NCBI GenBank assembly: GCA_964616725.1
Contig: CAZTRW010000001.1
Span: forward strand, 9,465-73,464
Length of the DNA stretch: 64,000 nt
From: an uncultured bacterium
GTDB taxonomy: Bacteria > Cyanobacteriota > Cyanobacteriia > Cyanobacteriales > Desertifilaceae
Reading direction: 5' to 3'
The notes beneath the pieces were generated by a model. The model was not told the DNA's origin. It worked only from the letters and a program-made list of their open reading frames with translations, and made no database searches. Positions 51,052-60,275 of this stretch are shown in pieces. The translations under genes were made by a program, and so were the position numbers. Within the stretch, counting starts at the first letter, position 1, and every line of letters begins with the position of its first letter.

Positions 51052-54000
51052 TTAGTGGGAATTGAGGATGATAGGTTCAATGATCTTAATAATCCCCATG
51101 TCATCGAAGTTTTGGGCTAATTGTAAAAGGCGATCGCCAAAAGCATGATAATCTTGATGCAAGGATTGCAAATACCGAGCCTGTTTTTCTATCTCGTCAA
51201 TATCTCCAATCTTAGCCGCCTGATAAAGTCCCCTTAATTGATCGGCAGGAGGATAAATTAGGTGGGTTGGCAGAGTGGCTGTAGAAATTGGCGGGTGTGA
51301 TACTTCTTCGTACAGCCATTGCAGTTGCAAATGGCGTTTCAGAGAGGCTAACAGCTGTTCCACCTTGACTGGTTTAGGAATAAAGTCATTACATCCTGCG
51401 GCTAAAGCTCGGTTTTGATCTCCTTGAGAAACACTTGCCGAAGAAGCAATAATCGGTAGAGACTGATAACCCGGTAATTCTCGGATAAATTGAGTCATTT
51501 CATAACCATCTAATTCCGGCATCATTAGATCGGTGATAATTAAATCAGGATTTAATTCTTGCAACAGCAGTAAAGCGCCTTGGCCATTTTCTGCTTCTAC
51601 CACAGTAAAACCAAGGGTTTTTAAGAGAGCACTGAGCACTAATCGATTGGTGCTTAAATCATCCACTACCATAATTTTCCGTTGTTTGCCACGATAACCG
51701 ATCACTTTTCCCTGGTAATCAGTGGGATCGAAATCTGATTGTGAAGAGAGGGGAAAATCTATCTCAAACCAAAAGGTACTGCCTTCGCCAAGAATACTGT
51801 CTACCTGAATGGTACTTCCCATCATTTGCACAATTTGTTGACAAATGGCTAATCCTAGTCCCGTGCCTTCAGCTTGTTTTGATTTTTCGCCTACTTGTTC
51901 AAAAGGAAGAAAGATTTTTTGTAGATCTTCAGGAGTCATGCCTACCCCTGTGTCTTGAATGGCAAATTTTATTGTGACTGAGTTCGGCGTTTCTGAAGGA
52001 GTGGGAGTGATGATAAATTTCACTTCTCCTCGTTCTGTGAATTTGACGGAATTGCCGAGTAAGTTAATTAATATTTGACGGAGACGTTTTTGATCAGCAA
52101 TGATGCCAAGAGGGAGGTTTTCATCCGGTAAATAATGGAAATCAAGTCCTTTTTCTTCGGCTCTAATGCGGATGATTTCTGCCACACTTAATAAAAGAGT
52201 GTGGAGGTGAAAGGATTGGGGGATGAGTTCTAGTTTACGGGCTTCAATTTTGGATAAGTCGAGAATATCATTAATCAAGTTTAACAGATAAGAACCAGCT
52301 TGTTGAATGACTTCTACGCCTCTACGATGATCGTTGAGATCGTTGGCGCGTTGGAGAATTTGAGCATAGCCTAAAATGCCATTGAGAGGGGTGCGGAGTT
52401 CATGGCTCATGTTGGCGAGAAAATCGGTTTTCGCCTGGTTGGCGCGATCGGCGGCTTCTTTGGCTTCTTGTAGGGATTGTTCGATGTGCTTGTGATGGGT
52501 GATATTGATAGAAATCCCTAAAATTAGGGGGCGATTGGTATCAGGAGTTAGAAAGGGAGTTTTAATGCTTTCAAAATAAAGCACTTCTCCGTTGGGTTGG
52601 GTAAATTTTTCTTCAAATACAACGGTAACATTTTTTTCTAGGATTTGACGATCATTTTTTTGGTATTCTTCTAGATCCTCTAAATTGGGAATTAAGTCAG
52701 TTTCTTTCTTACCGATAATTTTGGTAATGGGAAAACCGAGGAGTTGGGCGAGACTTTGATTGACTAAAATCAGATGACCGTCAGCGTCTTTGATATAAAT
52801 TAAGTTGGGATCGGTGTCAATTATTTTCCTCAAAAAATCTTGCTGTTTTTGGAGTTCGGCGGTGCGTTGCTGTACTCGTTTTCCTAGAGATTGATTCATG
52901 GCTTTTAGTTCATCAATTGACTTTTTTAGGTGGTTTGCCATGAGATTAAAACATTGCCCTAGAAAATCAAATTCTTGGATTTTTTTAGGGCCAATAATTT
53001 GATTGAGACTGCCTTGGGCGATCGCCTGGGATGCTTTGGAGAGATCGAGAATCGGTTCTGTAATCCATTGGGCGGTCAAAACTGCTAAAGAAATGGTAAT
53101 TCCCGGGGCTAAAAACGAGAGTAAAATGGTTCTGCGAGTATTATCATAAATGGGAGACATGAACTCAGATTCTGGCACTACTAGCACAATTAGCCAATCA
53201 ATTCCTAGATCGTTAGCAAAAGAGGTCACTTTGACTAAGTGCTGTTCTTTTCGGAAGTAAAAGCTAAGTTTTTGGGGGTCTTGAATTTGATCGAATGTAC
53301 TAAACTGCTCGGTTAAATATTGGGCGGTTTCTCGAATAATAGCATGGTCGCTTTCAATGGCTTTTCGTTGCAAACTATCAGGATGATGGGATAATCGTAG
53401 GGTTTCGGGAAGGGAAGAAGCCATGAGTGAACCGGAGCGATCAATAATAAAAGTTGCTCCAGTTTGACCAATACTGAGTTGGGTGAGAAAATAACTAATT
53501 TGTCCCAGGGCGATATCAACCCTAATGACTCCTAAAAATTCACCTTGGGAAGTATAGAGGGATTGATGGGCAGAAATGACCGGCCATTGAGTAGTGGTCA
53601 AAAAATGGACATTACTCCACTGGTCTTTTCTAGTAACTTTTAATACTTTGTATATGGGGTTAGTGCGCGGATCTTGATTGGGAAGCGATCGCAACTTTCT
53701 GATTCGCTTTCCCTGCTCGTTTGTTTCCCATTCTTCTAAACTAAAGTCAGTTTTAGAGGTGGCAATATTAATCGTGATTTCGCCATCTTTATGTCGTTCC
53801 GCTCCGATAAAATCTCCCTCTTTTGTGGTTAAACTGACTAAGGCTAACTCCTCAAACTGGTGTAGTTGATTCCAGAAATAACGCTCTAATGTGGGTAAAT
53901 CTTGAGGATTCAAAAGATTCAGACGAATTGATTGGGCGTTGTTCTGATTGACTCTGATGGGTATTTTCAGCAGAGAAAGAAGCTTGTCTTCAATATAGCC

Positions 54001-54177
54001 AACCACTTCACTATGCAACTGATGAGTCACATCATTAACAGCTTCTTCTCCATTGCGTAAGGCTAACCAATTGGTGAGTCCAACCACCCCTAAGAGTTGA
54101 ATGGTAAATAAAATCACCAAAAACCAGCGCAAGGGAAGTTGGGAAGAACGGATGCGGGTAGAGAAGGGTGGTGACAT
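51052..54177 (-). CDS. Hybrid sensor histidine kinase (Cache-HAMP-PAS-HisKA-HATPase-REC)
   Basis: [36 protein letters not shown], receiver MVVDD...TDLMMP...KP. Confidence 0.92.
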
Positions 54178-54284
54178 GGAACTTTATGTAAAATTGACTA
54201 CGTTTTGAACAAGGATAACTCTGTCCTCAGTTGTGTAAATTTTATTTTACCTATCTTCATATTGTTGGTAAATCTTCATACTTT

Positions 54285-54617
54285 TTACGGGATCAGGCCA
54301 CATTCAAACATTCGGTTTGCCATGGGTCCAGCAACTCGGTTGATGAATTCTTCCCGCATTTGGGGATCATTGCGTAACATTTCTAGGGCTTTTTTTTCTA
54401 AGGCAGCACCAGGTCCAGTTCCTTCTCCTGGTTTGGTTTTCTGCATTTGCACTAATTGCTCGCAAGAGGAGTTGACAAATTTTTGGGTCACCAAATTAGT
54501 GGCTACATCCATTAACATTTCTTTGGTGGGTTGAGGTTGGGATAGGGAAGCACAACTATAGAGATAAAGTAATGCTGTGGAGAAGACAAATAGAGTCACA
54601 GAGAAATATTTTTTCAT
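54285..54617 (-). CDS. Conserved hypothetical lipoprotein
   Basis: Lipobox LYSC; C-terminal MANRMFECGLIP. Confidence 0.65.
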   Translation of the reverse strand: MKKYFSVTLFVFSTALLYLYSCASLSQPQPTKEMLMDVATNLVTQKFVNSSCEQLVQMQKTKPGEGTGPGAALEKKALEMLRNDPQMREEFINRVAGPMANRMFECGLIP

Positions 54618-54705: not shown

Positions 54706-55338
54706 TTACTTGGTACCAAATAGGCGATCGCCGGCATCTCCTAAGCCGGGTAGAATGTATCCATGATCGTCTAAGGTTTCATCAATAGCAGCCGTATAAA
54801 TGGGGATATCAGGATGTTCTAATTGGACATGATCTAAGCCTTGGGGAGCCGCCAATAAGCAAACAAACTTAATCGATTTTGGGTTTAGCTCTTTTAACCG
54901 ACTAATGGCAGCAATAGCTGTATTTCCTGTGGCTAACATGGGATCAACAATAAACATATCCCGATCCTCAACATCATGGGGTACTTTCAAATAATATTCA
55001 ATCGGAATCAGGGTTCTGGGATCTCGATATAAGCCAATATGTCCCACTCTTGCAGAAGGAATCAGCTCCAGCATTCCATCTAAAATGCCTTGTCCGGCTC
55101 GCATAATAGAAACCACCACCATTTTTTTATCTGGCGCTAACACGGGCGCTTGCATCACAGTTAAAGGTGTGGTGATTTCTTGTTGCTTTAGGGGTAAATC
55201 TCGCGTCACTTCATAGGCAAGCAGCAAACTAATTTCTTTGAGGAGAGAGCGAAATTTTGCTGTGCTAGTTTCTTGCCGTCTCATCAGAGTCAGTTTATGT
55301 AAAATTAAGGGATGGTTGATGACGGTAACGTTAGACAT
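54706..55338 (-). CDS. upp: Uracil phosphoribosyltransferase
   Basis: [39 protein letters not shown]. Confidence 0.97.
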
Positions 55339-55360
55339 AAATCCAGGGTATTGATGGGGG

Positions 55361-56005
55361 TTACTGCTGGTCTAGTTGTTGCTGGCATAATTGTTTGATT
55401 TTGCCAGGAACTACCGAGAGATTGATGATTTTGATTAATAAATCAGGGGCGAGAGGTTCTTGGCAATAGAGGTTAATAATATCGGAGACGGTGACGGGGT
55501 GTGGTTCCCGTTGAAGGATTATAATTTCATCTCCGAGTTGAATTTCTCCTGGTTGTAGCACAGATAGATAAAAGCCTAATAAGCGGCTATGCCAAAACTG
55601 CTCTACCATATCCTCTTGGTTAAATTTTAAGTTGAGTTTATAGCAGGGACGGCGAGGTTGAATGACTTGAAATTTGGCCGTACCAATCTGGAGGCGATCG
55701 CCAATACAAATATCCGTTTCTCTTAACTCTTCAGTTGTCAAATTTTCTCCAAACATTCCCCAGGGTAACCTCTGCCATTCTGGTAATTTTTTCTGCCAGT
55801 AGCTATAATGTTCAGAAGGATAAACATAGACTGATTTTTCTAACCCACCATGGACTTTTAAATCTGCTTGTTCATCCCCTTCTAAATGATCTGCATGAAC
55901 TCTGACTAATTGTTGAACAGGAGATTTAAAAATCCCCGTCTTCACGGTCTGATTTTGCCAGATGACAGTTTTTGCTAGTCCCACATTCACAGAGACTACA
56001 TGCAT
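55361..56005 (-). CDS. MOSC-domain protein (YiiM-like)
   Basis: [34 protein letters not shown], 3-alpha tail. Confidence 0.87.
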
Positions 56006-56016
56006 CTCCGATTCTC

Positions 56017-57225
56017 CTAAAATACAGTACCATCACTCTGAATCAACAGAGGAGGAGTTCCCCCTCGCCATTGCGTGGCAATTTTTCGTCCTGCTGTCCA
56101 AGTTCCGCCTTGTAAAACTTTCACTAAGGGTAATTCTTCTGGAGTCATGTCTAACTTTTCTCGGATGATTTCGGCTAGGCGATCGAGTAAGATAATGGTT
56201 AAAGCACGCCATTCGATTATTGCTTCTGCATCCACGGGATGAGCAATCTCTAATTGGGTAGGATCTTTAACCTCTAAAACTCCCAAATCTAGAAATAATC
56301 CGCCATTACGATATTCGGCTAACCCTGTTAATTGGTTTAAGTCGGTGATGATTAATCCGAGATCTTGTAAGGGTTCTAAGAGGGAATAGGTGAGCCATTG
56401 CGATAGTTTGTGAAAGGGGATCAGTTGGGAGCCGATTCCTGTGTTTGGTAAGGCGGAATGAGACCAGACATCACCTAAGTTTACACCATTGAGGGTAAGT
56501 CGTCCTGGCCAGATGTCGCTCAGGCTGGCAAGAATGGTCTGGAACACGGTTACGGCGGATAAATGAGAATTTTGAGATTGAGTGAGCCAATAGTTGACTA
56601 AATGACCAGGACGGGCGGGATCTGAGCCAAAATAGTGGGGGGATGCGGCTAGGATTTTACCCAGTTTTTGGAGTAATTCCAGTCTTCCTGATAAACCCAC
56701 TACAGGGTTTTCTGGGGTAACTTGCAAGAGGCTGGCGAGGGTAGACTCGGTGAAGGTTTGCAATGCTAATCCATCGACTTGATAGGGATAGTCTGGATGG
56801 CTGGAAAATTGCCCTTGCATAAAGGCTTGAAAACTGGCGATCGCCAATCCTTCCGAACGAGTATAAATTTTGCCAGTGCTGGGGTCTCGATACTGCCATT
56901 GGGAGCCGGAACCGGCATCTAAGAGGACGCTGATCGTTGCCAAATCTATTTTGGCTTGGCTTTGTGCTAGGGGTGAATCCTTGGATAAGGTGAGTTCTAA
57001 TTGATCTAAGTGGGAACCAAAATGTCGCCATCGGGAATGAAAGGGAATCTGCAAATCGGGGTAATTAGTGCGGATGACTTCAATGACGTAATCGGCGACG
57101 AGGGGTAGGTGAGATAAATGGCAACGAAAGGTGGATCGTTGATCGGATAGGGCCCAATGGAATAAAATGGAGGCACGATCGCGGATTGTCTCAGGCGATC
57201 GCAACTGAGCAACTACCCTCTCCAT
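56017..57225 (-). CDS. URC4/urg3 family protein (DUF1688)
   Basis: IPFHSRWRHF, SVLLDAGSG, RSEGLA, FHKLSQWLTYSL, TGLAEYRNGGL, VLQGGTW.AGR, SDGTVF. Confidence 0.88.
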   Translation of the reverse strand: MERVVAQLRSPETIRDRASILFHWALSDQRSTFRCHLSHLPLVADYVIEVIRTNYPDLQIPFHSRWRHFGSHLDQLELTLSKDSPLAQSQAKIDLATISVLLDAGSGSQWQYRDPSTGKIYTRSEGLAIASFQAFMQGQFSSHPDYPYQVDGLALQTFTESTLASLLQVTPENPVVGLSGRLELLQKLGKILAASPHYFGSDPARPGHLVNYWLTQSQNSHLSAVTVFQTILASLSDIWPGRLTLNGVNLGDVWSHSALPNTGIGSQLIPFHKLSQWLTYSLLEPLQDLGLIITDLNQLTGLAEYRNGGLFLDLGVLEVKDPTQLEIAHPVDAEAIIEWRALTIILLDRLAEIIREKLDMTPEELPLVKVLQGGTWTAGRKIATQWRGGTPPLLIQSDGTVF

Positions 57226-58485
57226 TCAATCTAACCCCCGACCCAGAGTTTCTTCCAGTAGCTCTTTAGAGACTTCCTCTTCGCTATAATAGCCTGCCGC
57301 CTTTTTCGCCATAATTTCCACCAGAGCATCTTTAGGAATTAACTCTGGGGGAATCGCCACCCGCTCCCGTACCTCAATACCCCCGTTGGTAATCGCATCG
57401 TACTTCATATTACTCATGGACACGAGACGATCAATCCGAGTGATGCCTAACCAATGGAGAACATCGGGCATAAATTCTTGAAAGCGCATATCTTGCACGC
57501 CAGCCACACATTCAGTGCGTTCAAAATAGGCAGTAGGGCGATCGCCTCCCTCTTGACGCTTGCGGGCATTATACACCAAAAACTTCGTTACCTCTCCCAA
57601 GGCGCGACCTTCCTTGCGGAAATACACAATTACTCCCAATCCTCTTTCCTGAGCCGTGCGAATACATACCTCAATGCCATGGGCGAGATAGGGGCGACAG
57701 GTACAAATATCCGAGCCAAACACATCCGAGCCATTACACTCATCATGCACTCGAACGGCGATGGGGCGATCTTGATCCGTAATCGCCCTTAAATCCCCAA
57801 TCAAATACACCGTCGCTCCCCCAATTGGCGGCAAATAGAGCACCAAATCCGGGCGAGTCACTAACTCTGGAAACATTCCCCCCGTTTGCTCAAACAAGGC
57901 ATGGCGCAACTCCATCTCCTCTACCCCAATCCGCTTGGCAATACCGGGAAGATACCACACCGGCTCAATGGCAGCTTTCATCACCACCAAATCCCCACCC
58001 TCTTTCAGGATAGCACCATCCACCGTTAACCGCCCCTTGGCGATCGCCTCCTGAAGTTCGGGCATATTAATATGAGCTTGGGTAATGGCGATTGTCGGTC
58101 GAATATCAATGCCGCGATCGTACAATGAACTATAAACCTCTCCCACCCGCGCGCCAAACGGATCAAGAGACACAATCTTATCCGGATCATACCAACTCGG
58201 ATGGGGTCCAATCTCCGCCACCGGTGCTGTATTCGTCAAATCCGGGCGATGATTAGGATTAAGCGCTTGACGAGCCACCGCCAAAGCCCGATAAATCGCA
58301 TAAGATCCTGAATGAGTACCAATCACATTCCGATGCGCCGGATTCGTTAATGTCGCGACAACAGCACCTCTTTTGAGAGGATCCGGATTTCCCCAATCAA
58401 TCGGAATCGGCTTTACCCCACTCTGACGAGGATGAGACGTAAGCACAATCGGTTTAGACTTAGAACGACGAGTCGGATCGGCCAT
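57226..58485 (-). CDS. GTP cyclohydrolase II-like protein of the URC1/urg1 type
   Basis: N-terminal RNVIGTHSGSYAIYRALA domain; RVHDECNGSDVFGSDICTCRPYL; RKEGRALGEVTK. Confidence 0.88.
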   Translation of the reverse strand: MADPTRRSKSKPIVLTSHPRQSGVKPIPIDWGNPDPLKRGAVVATLTNPAHRNVIGTHSGSYAIYRALAVARQALNPNHRPDLTNTAPVAEIGPHPSWYDPDKIVSLDPFGARVGEVYSSLYDRGIDIRPTIAITQAHINMPELQEAIAKGRLTVDGAILKEGGDLVVMKAAIEPVWYLPGIAKRIGVEEMELRHALFEQTGGMFPELVTRPDLVLYLPPIGGATVYLIGDLRAITDQDRPIAVRVHDECNGSDVFGSDICTCRPYLAHGIEVCIRTAQERGLGVIVYFRKEGRALGEVTKFLVYNARKRQEGGDRPTAYFERTECVAGVQDMRFQEFMPDVLHWLGITRIDRLVSMSNMKYDAITNGGIEVRERVAIPPELIPKDALVEIMAKKAAGYYSEEEVSKELLEETLGRGLD

Positions 58486-58843
58486 ACTCTTAAACCCATA
58501 ACAGTTGGAGATTACCGTATTTTGTCATAACTTGGGTTATTCCTGGCCCAGTGCGCCAGGAAAAACACCATCAAACTAAGAGTCGTTGAGTCATCATGAC
58601 TTCAGCGTATTTTTGTATCCGGCGTGTTATGGCGATCACCGCATAACACCTAATTAGCCCTCAGACCTTCTATGGGGCAGGTGACAGAGAGTTGTCTGTC
58701 GGCATTGGGATTCAGAAACCATAAATTTGCTGGTGGAAAAGCATCTTGAGCAGTGATGCAGTGTTTCAGCTTGCTCAATGGAATGAATAGGAATCAGGCT
58801 ATACTAGAGAGTAAAGTTGGAAGACCCAGAGGCGGTAAGTGCA

Positions 58844-59908
58844 ATGGTTCAAAAAATTGCCCTTTTCAATCACAAAGGTGAAGTTAGCAAAACTACAACT
58901 ACTTTCAACCTTGGGTGGATGCTTGCCTCAAAAGGGAAAAAGGTAATTCTTGTCGATACTGATCCACAATGTAACCTAACTGGCATGGCTTTGGGAGAAG
59001 AAACAGAGGATGATGAAGCAAGAATAGCAGCAATTTACAATACACGCTCGAATATAAAAACAGGTCTAGCACCAGCTTTTGAGTCGCAACCAAAAGCTAT
59101 TGAGGCAGTGGACTGTATTCCTATTGAAGGGCGAGATGGGCTATTTCTACTACCTGGTCATGTTGGTTTCGCAGAATATGAAGTTACACTAGGCATTGCT
59201 CAAGAGCTAAGTGGCTCAATCCAGGCTCTCAAGAATTTACCTGGTTCCATCACGGATTTGTTAGAGAAAACTGCCCAAAAATTTGATGCAGATTATATTC
59301 TGATCGATATGAGTCCTAGCTTGGGAGCAATCAACCAGAATCTTCTGATGACCAGCGACTTTTTCATAGTGCCTACTACTGCTGATTTCTTTTCTGTAAT
59401 GGCAATTGACTCTTTGGCTAAAGTGTTGCCGAAATGGTATGCGTGGGCAGAATCAGCTAGTTCGCTCCAAATTTTGAAAGACGCTACATATCCGTTTCCT
59501 GACGTTACACTTCGTTTTTTGGGAATCATCATTCAGAATTATCGAATCATTCGCGGTAAAGAGACTGCTGCGTTTGAGACATGGATTCAGAAAATTGAGG
59601 AAGATGTTTCCTCTAAGCTAGTTCCGGTACTTCATAAGAGGAATATGATGCTACCTGAGCAGGTATATACTGAACAAGGTATTGGTAGCAGTTTTTGTCT
59701 AACAAAAATTTCCAACTTCAATAGCCTTATTGCGCTTTCTCAAGAGCATCGCACTCCAATCTATGCTCTTACTGCTCAGCAATTAAGGCAAACAGGAGTA
59801 GTGCTACAAAATAATCAGGCAAAGCAAGCTGAGTTTCAGCAAATGTTTGAAGACCTGGCAGATAAGATCATCGGATTAACCTCTGTTTCCTATGCTGTCA
59901 GCGCTTAA
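58844..59908 (+). CDS. ParA/Soj-like ATPase with altered Walker A (KGEVSKT)
   Basis: IALFNHKGEVSKTTT, LVDTDPQCNLT, ILIDMSPSLG; start set at MVQKI. Confidence 0.82.
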   Translation: MVQKIALFNHKGEVSKTTTTFNLGWMLASKGKKVILVDTDPQCNLTGMALGEETEDDEARIAAIYNTRSNIKTGLAPAFESQPKAIEAVDCIPIEGRDGLFLLPGHVGFAEYEVTLGIAQELSGSIQALKNLPGSITDLLEKTAQKFDADYILIDMSPSLGAINQNLLMTSDFFIVPTTADFFSVMAIDSLAKVLPKWYAWAESASSLQILKDATYPFPDVTLRFLGIIIQNYRIIRGKETAAFETWIQKIEEDVSSKLVPVLHKRNMMLPEQVYTEQGIGSSFCLTKISNFNSLIALSQEHRTPIYALTAQQLRQTGVVLQNNQAKQAEFQQMFEDLADKIIGLTSVSYAVSA

Positions 59909-60275
59909 TCAATTCCGAATCAGTATTACTCGTGTTCGAGATCTGATTTCTATCCATAACTCTGTTAAAGCTCAGTCTACTCCTGCATTGGATTTATCAG
60001 ATATATTGAGAGCCGCTCTAGTTCTAGCTGTGAGTGCCTTAGATTACTATGTTCATGAAGTTGTAACGCTAGGAATATTGGAGATTCATAGAGGGCAACG
60101 TTCTGAACCTAACCCTCCGCCGAATAGTTCTCAATCCACATTTTCTCGCTTTCAGGTTTCATTGGGTAGCGCACGACAAGAAAGATTGATAGCAATGGAT
60201 ATAGCTTCTTGGCTAGAGAATGAAATCCAGCAAAGTCAAGGCTCTTTATTTTTGCAGCAGTTCTACACTGACTAA
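59892..60275 (+). pseudogene. Truncated HEPN-like (RiboL-PSP-type) protein
   Basis: LRAALVLAVSALDYYVHE matches the N-terminal half of this family as I recall it. The ORF ends at 127 aa with no RxxxxH motif, and I found no continuation downstream. Confidence 0.6.

Follow-up and report, generated by a model that had tools for sequence, protein, structure and literature searches.

The question raised by this locus is what a gene for a MOSC-domain protein is doing inside an operon for uracil catabolism. The locus lies in a 64,000-nucleotide stretch of a Roseofilum genome (assembly GCA_964616725.1, contig CAZTRW010000001.1), which as a whole we call the window, and it consists of four co-oriented minus-strand open reading frames (ORFs) in the order URC1-URC4-MOSC-upp, with gaps of 0, 11 and 22 nucleotides (Table 1). 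An earlier reading made without database searches (the sequence-only reading) had described these four genes and proposed that the MOSC protein either is a missing redox step of the bacterial URC route or feeds detoxified base analogues into it. The coordinates in the ORF list and a direct reading of the junctions confirm the arrangement, and profile searches bear out the identities of URC1, URC4, MOSC and upp. For the MOSC gene we favor a different explanation, in which it encodes a lineage-specific passenger reductase that has come to sit in a URC operon of known type and has no obligatory role in the URC pathway. We give this reading a probability of roughly 0.7. The observation that carries it is that, among the genomes searched, the MOSC gene is confined to one Roseofilum assembly. 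It is a local insertion and not a pathway step, and the inference of a pathway role is therefore unsupported.

The first survey centers on URC4. Of 41 close relatives, 14 carry a member of its family, DUF1688, as do 52 of the 401 genomes that sample the phylum, and around each match we took flanks of 7-9 kb on each side, or up to the end of the contig. Another 80 loci, added by means of a 41-sequence URC4 alignment against a species-level genome collection, include representatives of Legionella, Methylobacterium, Microvirga, Kaistia, Corallococcus, Archangium, Marinobacterium and the Bdellovibrionota. The final set has 133 non-redundant URC4 loci from Cyanobacteria, Alpha- and Gammaproteobacteria, Myxococcota and Bdellovibrionota, and is a non-exhaustive sample of related genomes. 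A co-oriented URC1 precedes URC4 in 111 of the 133 loci and a co-oriented upp follows it in 93; the complete trio occurs in 86. Because the co-oriented order recurs in 86 of 133 independent loci, it is not due to chance: URC1-URC4-upp is a conserved bacterial core. The statement in the sequence-only reading that such clusters exist in bacteria was correct, and the locus in the window is a standard, widely conserved bacterial URC operon for uracil catabolism. The MOSC gene is found nowhere else in this set. A phmmer search with the window protein (E at most 1e-3) finds no MOSC ORF within 7-8 kb in the 133 URC4 loci searched, and neither does a search of the same loci with a hidden Markov model of the window protein and 119 YiiM-like homologues (E at most 0.1). 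The sequence-only reading had suggested a count of how often a MOSC gene lies inside URC clusters; the count is 0/133, and in this sense the gene is unique to this strain.

A comparison within the genus shows what is particular to the window. Its genome is a metagenome-assembled genome (MAG) of 3.9 Mb in 315 contigs, 93.65% complete, and the nearest URC4 locus in the genome collection is that of Roseofilum halophilum BLCC-M91. Three of the five congeners compared (G001, G002 and G005) have the arrangement DprA-WD40-upp-URC4, with a nucleotide identity to the window of 71-83%; for the remaining two, the alignment covered URC4 alone. The URC4-upp junction of the congeners is occupied by an opposite-strand Uma2 endonuclease gene or by a 377-bp spacer. 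In the window this junction is filled by the MOSC gene, so that upp is co-oriented with URC4 but set apart from it by this gene of 645 bp. The upp gene of the congeners is in the syntenic position and is 91-92% identical to the one in the window, and their URC1, 88-89% identical, is on another contig. Within the genus, only the window's genome has URC1 adjoining URC4, as most other cyanobacteria do. A relaxed tblastn search of the congeners' URC4-upp spacers (E at most 10) finds nothing meaningful that could be a MOSC remnant. With the window protein as query, no YiiM-like MOSC gene is found in 13 genomes of the same family (six congeners and seven others), and this includes congeners that keep URC1, URC4 and upp.

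Insertion into URC clusters is not peculiar to this genome. The gaps of cyanobacterial URC clusters hold DUF433/DUF5615 and PIN toxin-antitoxin genes, Uma2 genes, transposases of the DDE and IS605 types, and DUF4360 genes, and where upp lies downstream (93 loci), the URC4-upp gap is longer than 600 nucleotides in 21 cases. The MOSC gene adds to these inserts, and is unlike the others in its co-orientation and tight packing. Since cyanobacterial URC gaps often hold unrelated genes, finding a gene inside a URC cluster is no ground for assigning it to the pathway until its conservation has been checked.

The second survey starts from the MOSC protein. Its best match among 5.8 billion proteins is 56% identical, and it forms a one-member cluster. 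Taken as the query, it finds a YiiM-like homologue in 3 of 40 relatives and, among 400 further genomes of the phylum, in 24. Six genomes have both a YiiM-like gene and URC4, and the two are never linked, being either on different contigs or 148 kb apart. Within about 6 kb of 13 YiiM-like cyanobacterial loci we find none of URC1, URC4 and upp. Ten neighboring genes scanned at seven of these 13 loci include alpha/beta hydrolases, a Zn-dependent dehydrogenase (Zn-ADH), a short-chain dehydrogenase/reductase (SDR), a flavin adenine dinucleotide (FAD) oxidoreductase and a DUF302 protein, and these neighbors have a xenobiotic or redox flavor. In the window, we find no compositional signal of a recent horizontal transfer of the MOSC gene; its GC content has a z of -1.6 and its codon adaptation is normal, and the donor therefore cannot be named.

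An obligatory reduction by the MOSC protein within the bacterial URC pathway, which is the missing redox step of the sequence-only reading, has only the position inside the operon in its favor. Its absence from the other 133 loci speaks against it, as does the search of congeners with all three URC genes, in which the window protein as query finds no YiiM-like MOSC gene, and so does the chemistry that can be reconstructed for the other three proteins. URC1 scores 286 bits against PF12471, 62 bits against PF00925 and 717 bits against NF005536 (cut-off 403). It also matches two bacterial structures in the PDB, 7EJ3 and 7EEV, with 568 bits over residues 8-418; both are deposited as 'GTP cyclohydrolase II'. 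URC4 scores 479.5 bits against PF07958 (DUF1688), and a search for sequence-level matches to it in the PDB finds none. Its AlphaFold2 model has a predicted local distance difference test score (pLDDT) of 94.9, and the Foldseek matches to this model are to Qng1/DUF2419 structures only, such as 7U07 (E 5e-10, probability 1.0, template modeling scores of 0.61-0.74). The upp product scores 271 bits against TIGR01091 (cut-off 208) and 282 bits against NF001097. The same genome encodes, outside the window, another uracil phosphoribosyltransferase paralogue that shares 40% identity with the upp of the operon (Table 1), and given this paralogue the URC-linked upp may be a dedicated copy.

In the yeast pathway, URC1 and URC6 lead to ribosylurea and 3-hydroxypropionate, URC4 takes ribosylurea to urea, and there is no MOSC protein among the pathway genes (PMC7530994). 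In the window, upp would convert uracil to uridine monophosphate (UMP), to be phosphorylated to uridine triphosphate (UTP); the URC1/UrcA-type cyclohydrolase would open the pyrimidine ring by hydrolysis, so that a three-carbon acid and a ribosylurea nucleotide are formed; and URC4, acting as a Qng1-like N-glycosidase, would free urea. The genome encodes a urease (alpha subunit), which could use the urea as a nitrogen source. A 2021 paper in ACS Catalysis on a "UTP cyclohydrolase", an entry in a reference list, is cited for the URC pathway. Given that entry, we judge out of date the earlier statement that the URC1 reaction has yet to be settled. Because URC1 matches 7EJ3 and 7EEV, because a UTP cyclohydrolase paper is cited for URC, and because URC4 has a predicted Qng1 fold, the path from uracil to urea would be explained by phosphoribosylation, ring hydrolysis and glycosidic cleavage alone, and would need no N-O reduction. 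With a reconstructed route that is wholly hydrolytic (through the reported UTP cyclohydrolase and the Qng1-like glycosidase) and a yeast pathway that has no MOSC protein, we regard an obligatory redox step for MOSC as hardly credible. What is removed is a tempting but wrong lead, and the import of this beyond annotation is small.

The MOSC protein itself scores 125 bits against PF03473, aligns with the YiiM of Geobacillus in structure 5YHH (E 1.5e-36), and aligns also with the E. coli YiiM structures 5YHI and 1O65. The invariant cysteine of YiiM is C120 in E. coli (ecYiiM) and C119 in Geobacillus stearothermophilus (gsYiiM), and the cavity residues modeled in ecYiiM are R55, A56, N87, Q115, R117 and W201 (PMC5818509). 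The window protein keeps the cysteine as C121, in a QPRRPC motif where it aligns to the cysteines of 5YHH and 5YHI, and it also keeps K57, N88, Q116 and R118. The frame of 214 codons is intact and its codon usage is native-like. In the AlphaFold2 model, which has a mean pLDDT of 88, the barrel is predicted together with three C-terminal helices (173-180, 187-194 and 201-213), the helices at pLDDT above 90. The genome encodes MoaC and MoeA, and therefore the molybdenum cofactor (Moco) can be made. A PADLOC search gives no match for the MOSC protein. With C121, Q116, R118 and N88 kept, conserved columns retained, a confidently predicted fold and native codons, the protein looks functional, and by analogy with its relatives its most likely activity is a Moco-dependent two-electron reduction, with N-hydroxylated bases or amidoximes as substrates. 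Among those relatives, YiiM, YcbX and mARC reduce 6-hydroxylaminopurine and N4-hydroxycytosine or N4-hydroxycytidine (PMC5818509, PMC10637980).

The same protein is the most divergent of 120 family members, with a mean identity to the others of 51%, compared to 67% among the others. Its terminal branch has 1.07 substitutions per site, where the median is 0.04 and the next-longest branch has 0.52. It deviates at 17 of the 96 columns that are at least 90% conserved, where the other members have at most 12 deviations and a median of 1, and it is not matched by the PF03475 model of the C-terminal 3-alpha domain, though most homologues are. One of the changes is W203I: all 119 homologues compared have a tryptophan at the equivalent position, as do the gsYiiM and ecYiiM crystal structures. 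We checked the equivalence of positions 203 and 58 by aligning a canonical homologue with 5YHI and 5YHH. The long branch, the number of deviations, the missing 3-alpha match and the lost tryptophan would all be expected of a passenger in decay, a captured MOSC gene that is drifting, in which the loss of the tryptophan already impairs cofactor binding and which contributes nothing to the cell. That this gene is decaying we consider improbable, with the frame intact, a good Shine-Dalgarno sequence and native codon usage, the catalytic cysteine and the QPR motif in place, and a fold that is predicted with confidence. In addition, the protein agrees with the family at 82% of the conserved columns and at 33% of the variable ones, which argues for constraint along most of the branch. 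As an extreme outlier of its family, it offers a natural test of the weight of the invariant tryptophan in Moco binding.

How the operon is expressed bears on how the MOSC gene is to be understood. The ATG of URC4 directly abuts the TGA stop of URC1, and a GGAGA lies 6 nucleotides 5' of the ATG of MOSC. A consensus scan finds no promoter-like or terminator-like sites between the operon genes above what is expected in shuffled sequences. Transcription of the operon probably starts in the promoter region of URC1. Upstream of URC1 there is a 15-nucleotide motif, TGACAAAATACGGTA, with a single occurrence in the genome (G000). The full pattern is also upstream of URC1 in four of five congeners, where URC1 is at another locus, and the fifth has its first 10 nucleotides only. 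From this recurrence, the motif may be a promoter or operator element. It is not present upstream of the congeners' URC4, and therefore there is no shared regulon defined by the motif. We find no NtcA-type sites (GTA-N8-TAC) upstream of URC1, and an Rfam scan of the whole window finds no riboswitch or other RNA family.

In the reading that we favor, a single gene of the YiiM family would have been inserted into the URC4-upp junction in one Roseofilum lineage. It would share the operon's transcript, started at the URC1 promoter, and be translated from its own GGAGA, and its product would reduce 6-hydroxylaminopurine to adenine and N4-hydroxycytosine to cytosine, cleaning the base pool while bases are taken up and phosphoribosylated. 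Co-expression with uptake and phosphoribosylation of bases would be sensible for such an enzyme. Several observations weigh against this reading. The structure of the locus rests on one assembly, a MAG of 315 contigs. Before MOSC, within the 3' end of URC4, there is a hairpin with a poor T-tract (56066-56049); it is within chance expectation and is accounted for by the URC4 codons GGG GGA ACT CCT CCT (Gly-Gly-Thr-Pro-Pro). Co-transcription of MOSC is probable because the gaps to its neighbors are 11 and 22 nucleotides. The sequence-only reading had named, as findings that would count against its proposal, a MOSC gene unique to this strain and one not co-transcribed with the others; the former is what 133 loci show, and the latter is probably not the case. 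The score of the protein against NF008577 (6-hydroxyaminopurine reductase), 125 bits, is below the cut-off of 294. Two of the changes, A58S at the equivalent of ecA56 (pterin) and W203I at the equivalent of ecW201 (phosphate), fall on Moco contacts modeled in E. coli YiiM, and given these models the protein may have changed or lost its cofactor binding or its specificity. Finally, the MOSC gene is tightly packed and co-oriented, whereas several other URC inserts sit on the opposite strand, and with such packing a genuine functional tie may exist in this strain.

One form that such a tie could take is a strain-specific add-on, the second alternative of the sequence-only reading, in which the MOSC protein turns N-hydroxylated pyrimidines or ureides into ordinary pyrimidines or urea by reduction and so feeds the URC/urease route. 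The substrates proposed are N4-hydroxycytosine, N4-hydroxycytidine, N-hydroxyurea and N-hydroxylated ribosylurea, and the effect would be a wider range of nitrogen sources, with upp protected from activating mutagenic analogues. The tight co-oriented packing between URC4 and upp, with a ribosome-binding site of its own, is consistent with this. So are the activities of the relatives, since N4-hydroxycytosine and N4-hydroxycytidine are substrates of mARC and YiiM/YcbX, and N-hydroxyurea is reduced by mARC1; the same source questions whether such substrates occur naturally (PMC10637980). The long branch and the changes A58S and W203I could reflect a shift of substrate, with the conserved columns still preferentially kept. 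On the other side, the linkage is not conserved, with MOSC at 0 of 133 URC loci and a URC or upp neighbor at 0 of 13 YiiM-like loci. With one genome as the only case, selection for the linkage cannot be demonstrated, and no electron-donor gene is adjacent to MOSC. On balance we find such an add-on unlikely. It is doubtful, too, that a fast-evolving YiiM-type enzyme, its cavity remodeled by A58S and W203I, was recruited into the URC operon to reduce N-hydroxylated pyrimidines or ureides such as N4-hydroxycytosine or N-hydroxyurea; if that recruitment were true, it would be the first case of a MOSC enzyme built into a pyrimidine-catabolic route that scavenges nitrogen.

Table 1. The operon and the other features discussed. 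Coordinates are positions in the window unless a locus (L) or a genome (G) and contig (C) is named.
Feature	Coordinates	Strand	Remarks
URC1/UrcA-type cyclohydrolase (GTP_CH_N and GTP cyclohydrolase II-like domains), operon gene 1	57226-58485	minus	419 aa; PF12471, PF00925, NF005536
URC4 (DUF1688), predicted N-glycosidase of ribosylurea nucleotide	56017-57225	minus	402 aa; PF07958; Foldseek Qng1
YiiM-like MOSC protein, very divergent, between URC4 and upp	55361-56005	minus	214 aa; PF03473
upp (uracil phosphoribosyltransferase, URC6 equivalent), operon gene 4	54706-55338	minus	210 aa; TIGR01091
15-nt motif TGACAAAATACGGTA, candidate promoter/operator of the operon	58513-58527	minus	28-42 nt upstream of URC1 start; putative function
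Second uracil phosphoribosyltransferase paralogue	G000 contig C14:9652-10284		outside the window
Hybrid histidine kinase and 110-aa ORF	51052-54617	minus	between WD40 and upp
ParA/AAA_31-type ATPase and overlapping 127-aa ORF	58817-60275	plus	divergent from the URC operon
Inserts in cyanobacterial URC gaps	L018:8654-9329; L020:10673-11455; L024:10911-11357; L028:11223-11801; L078:8526-10178; L058:9843-11123		
Extra gene of Microcoleus URC loci	L062:8744-9826	minus	also L052-L054, L057-L060, L063, L065-L069, L071, L073, L075, L077
URC cluster that looks decayed (L083)	G090:C165:50500-66500		

The genes on both sides of the operon are worth describing. Next to upp there is a hybrid histidine kinase of 1041 residues (dCache, HAMP, PAS, HisKA, HATPase and receiver domains), with a 110-residue ORF that has a signal-peptide-like N-terminus; both genes are missing from the syntenic stretch of the congeners. 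On the side of URC1, a ParA/AAA_31-type ATPase of 363 residues overlaps an ORF with a weak match to the RiboL-PSP HEPN family. PADLOC gives only faint matches for this pair (PDC-M28B, 25 bits), which may be a small conflict or partition module.

The survey also brings out an extra gene in Microcoleus spp. (19 genomes sampled), where 18 URC loci have a co-oriented gene of 360-370 residues fixed between URC1 and URC4. In the copy that we scanned (L062), a match to PF00211 (72 bits) marks a class III nucleotide cyclase domain, and the matches to PycC are weak. This gene is conserved, unlike the MOSC gene, and it adjoins an enzyme, URC1, that is predicted to use UTP; as a truly conserved extra gene of a URC cluster it remains of interest. 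One locus of the same genus, L083, has a URC4 broken by a TAG and a fragmented URC1, and looks like a decayed URC cluster.

We close with a comparison to the systems that the operon resembles. Three protein families of the window operon are common to URC1, URC4 and URC6 of Lachancea kluyveri and to urg1-3 of S. pombe. With the bacterial URC1(UrcA)-URC4-upp operon, the window shares gene order and orientation (86 of the 133 surveyed loci), and it differs in the extra MOSC gene between URC4 and upp, seen at no other surveyed locus. For URC4, the closest structural likeness is to Qng1, the queuosine-5'-monophosphate N-glycosidase of queuine salvage (7U07, 7UGK), with the predicted fold of URC4 aligning over almost all of the Qng1 chain. 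This likeness of a predicted model would fit cleavage of the N-glycosidic bond in a ribosylurea nucleotide by URC4. The two proteins differ in that they are 16-18% identical with no sequence-level match, URC4 has about 80 extra residues, and they belong to different Pfam families; the activity is a prediction. With the YiiM proteins of E. coli and Geobacillus stearothermophilus, the MOSC protein shares the cysteine in QPRxPC, the FGEN and HGG motifs and, in its predicted model, the beta-barrel and three C-terminal helices. It differs from the crystallized YiiMs in sequence (about 30-40% identity), in the changes W203I and A58S, and in a score below the NCBIfam equivalog cut-off. The context of its gene is different as well: its cyanobacterial relatives sit among hydrolase and dehydrogenase genes, and this one sits in a pyrimidine operon.

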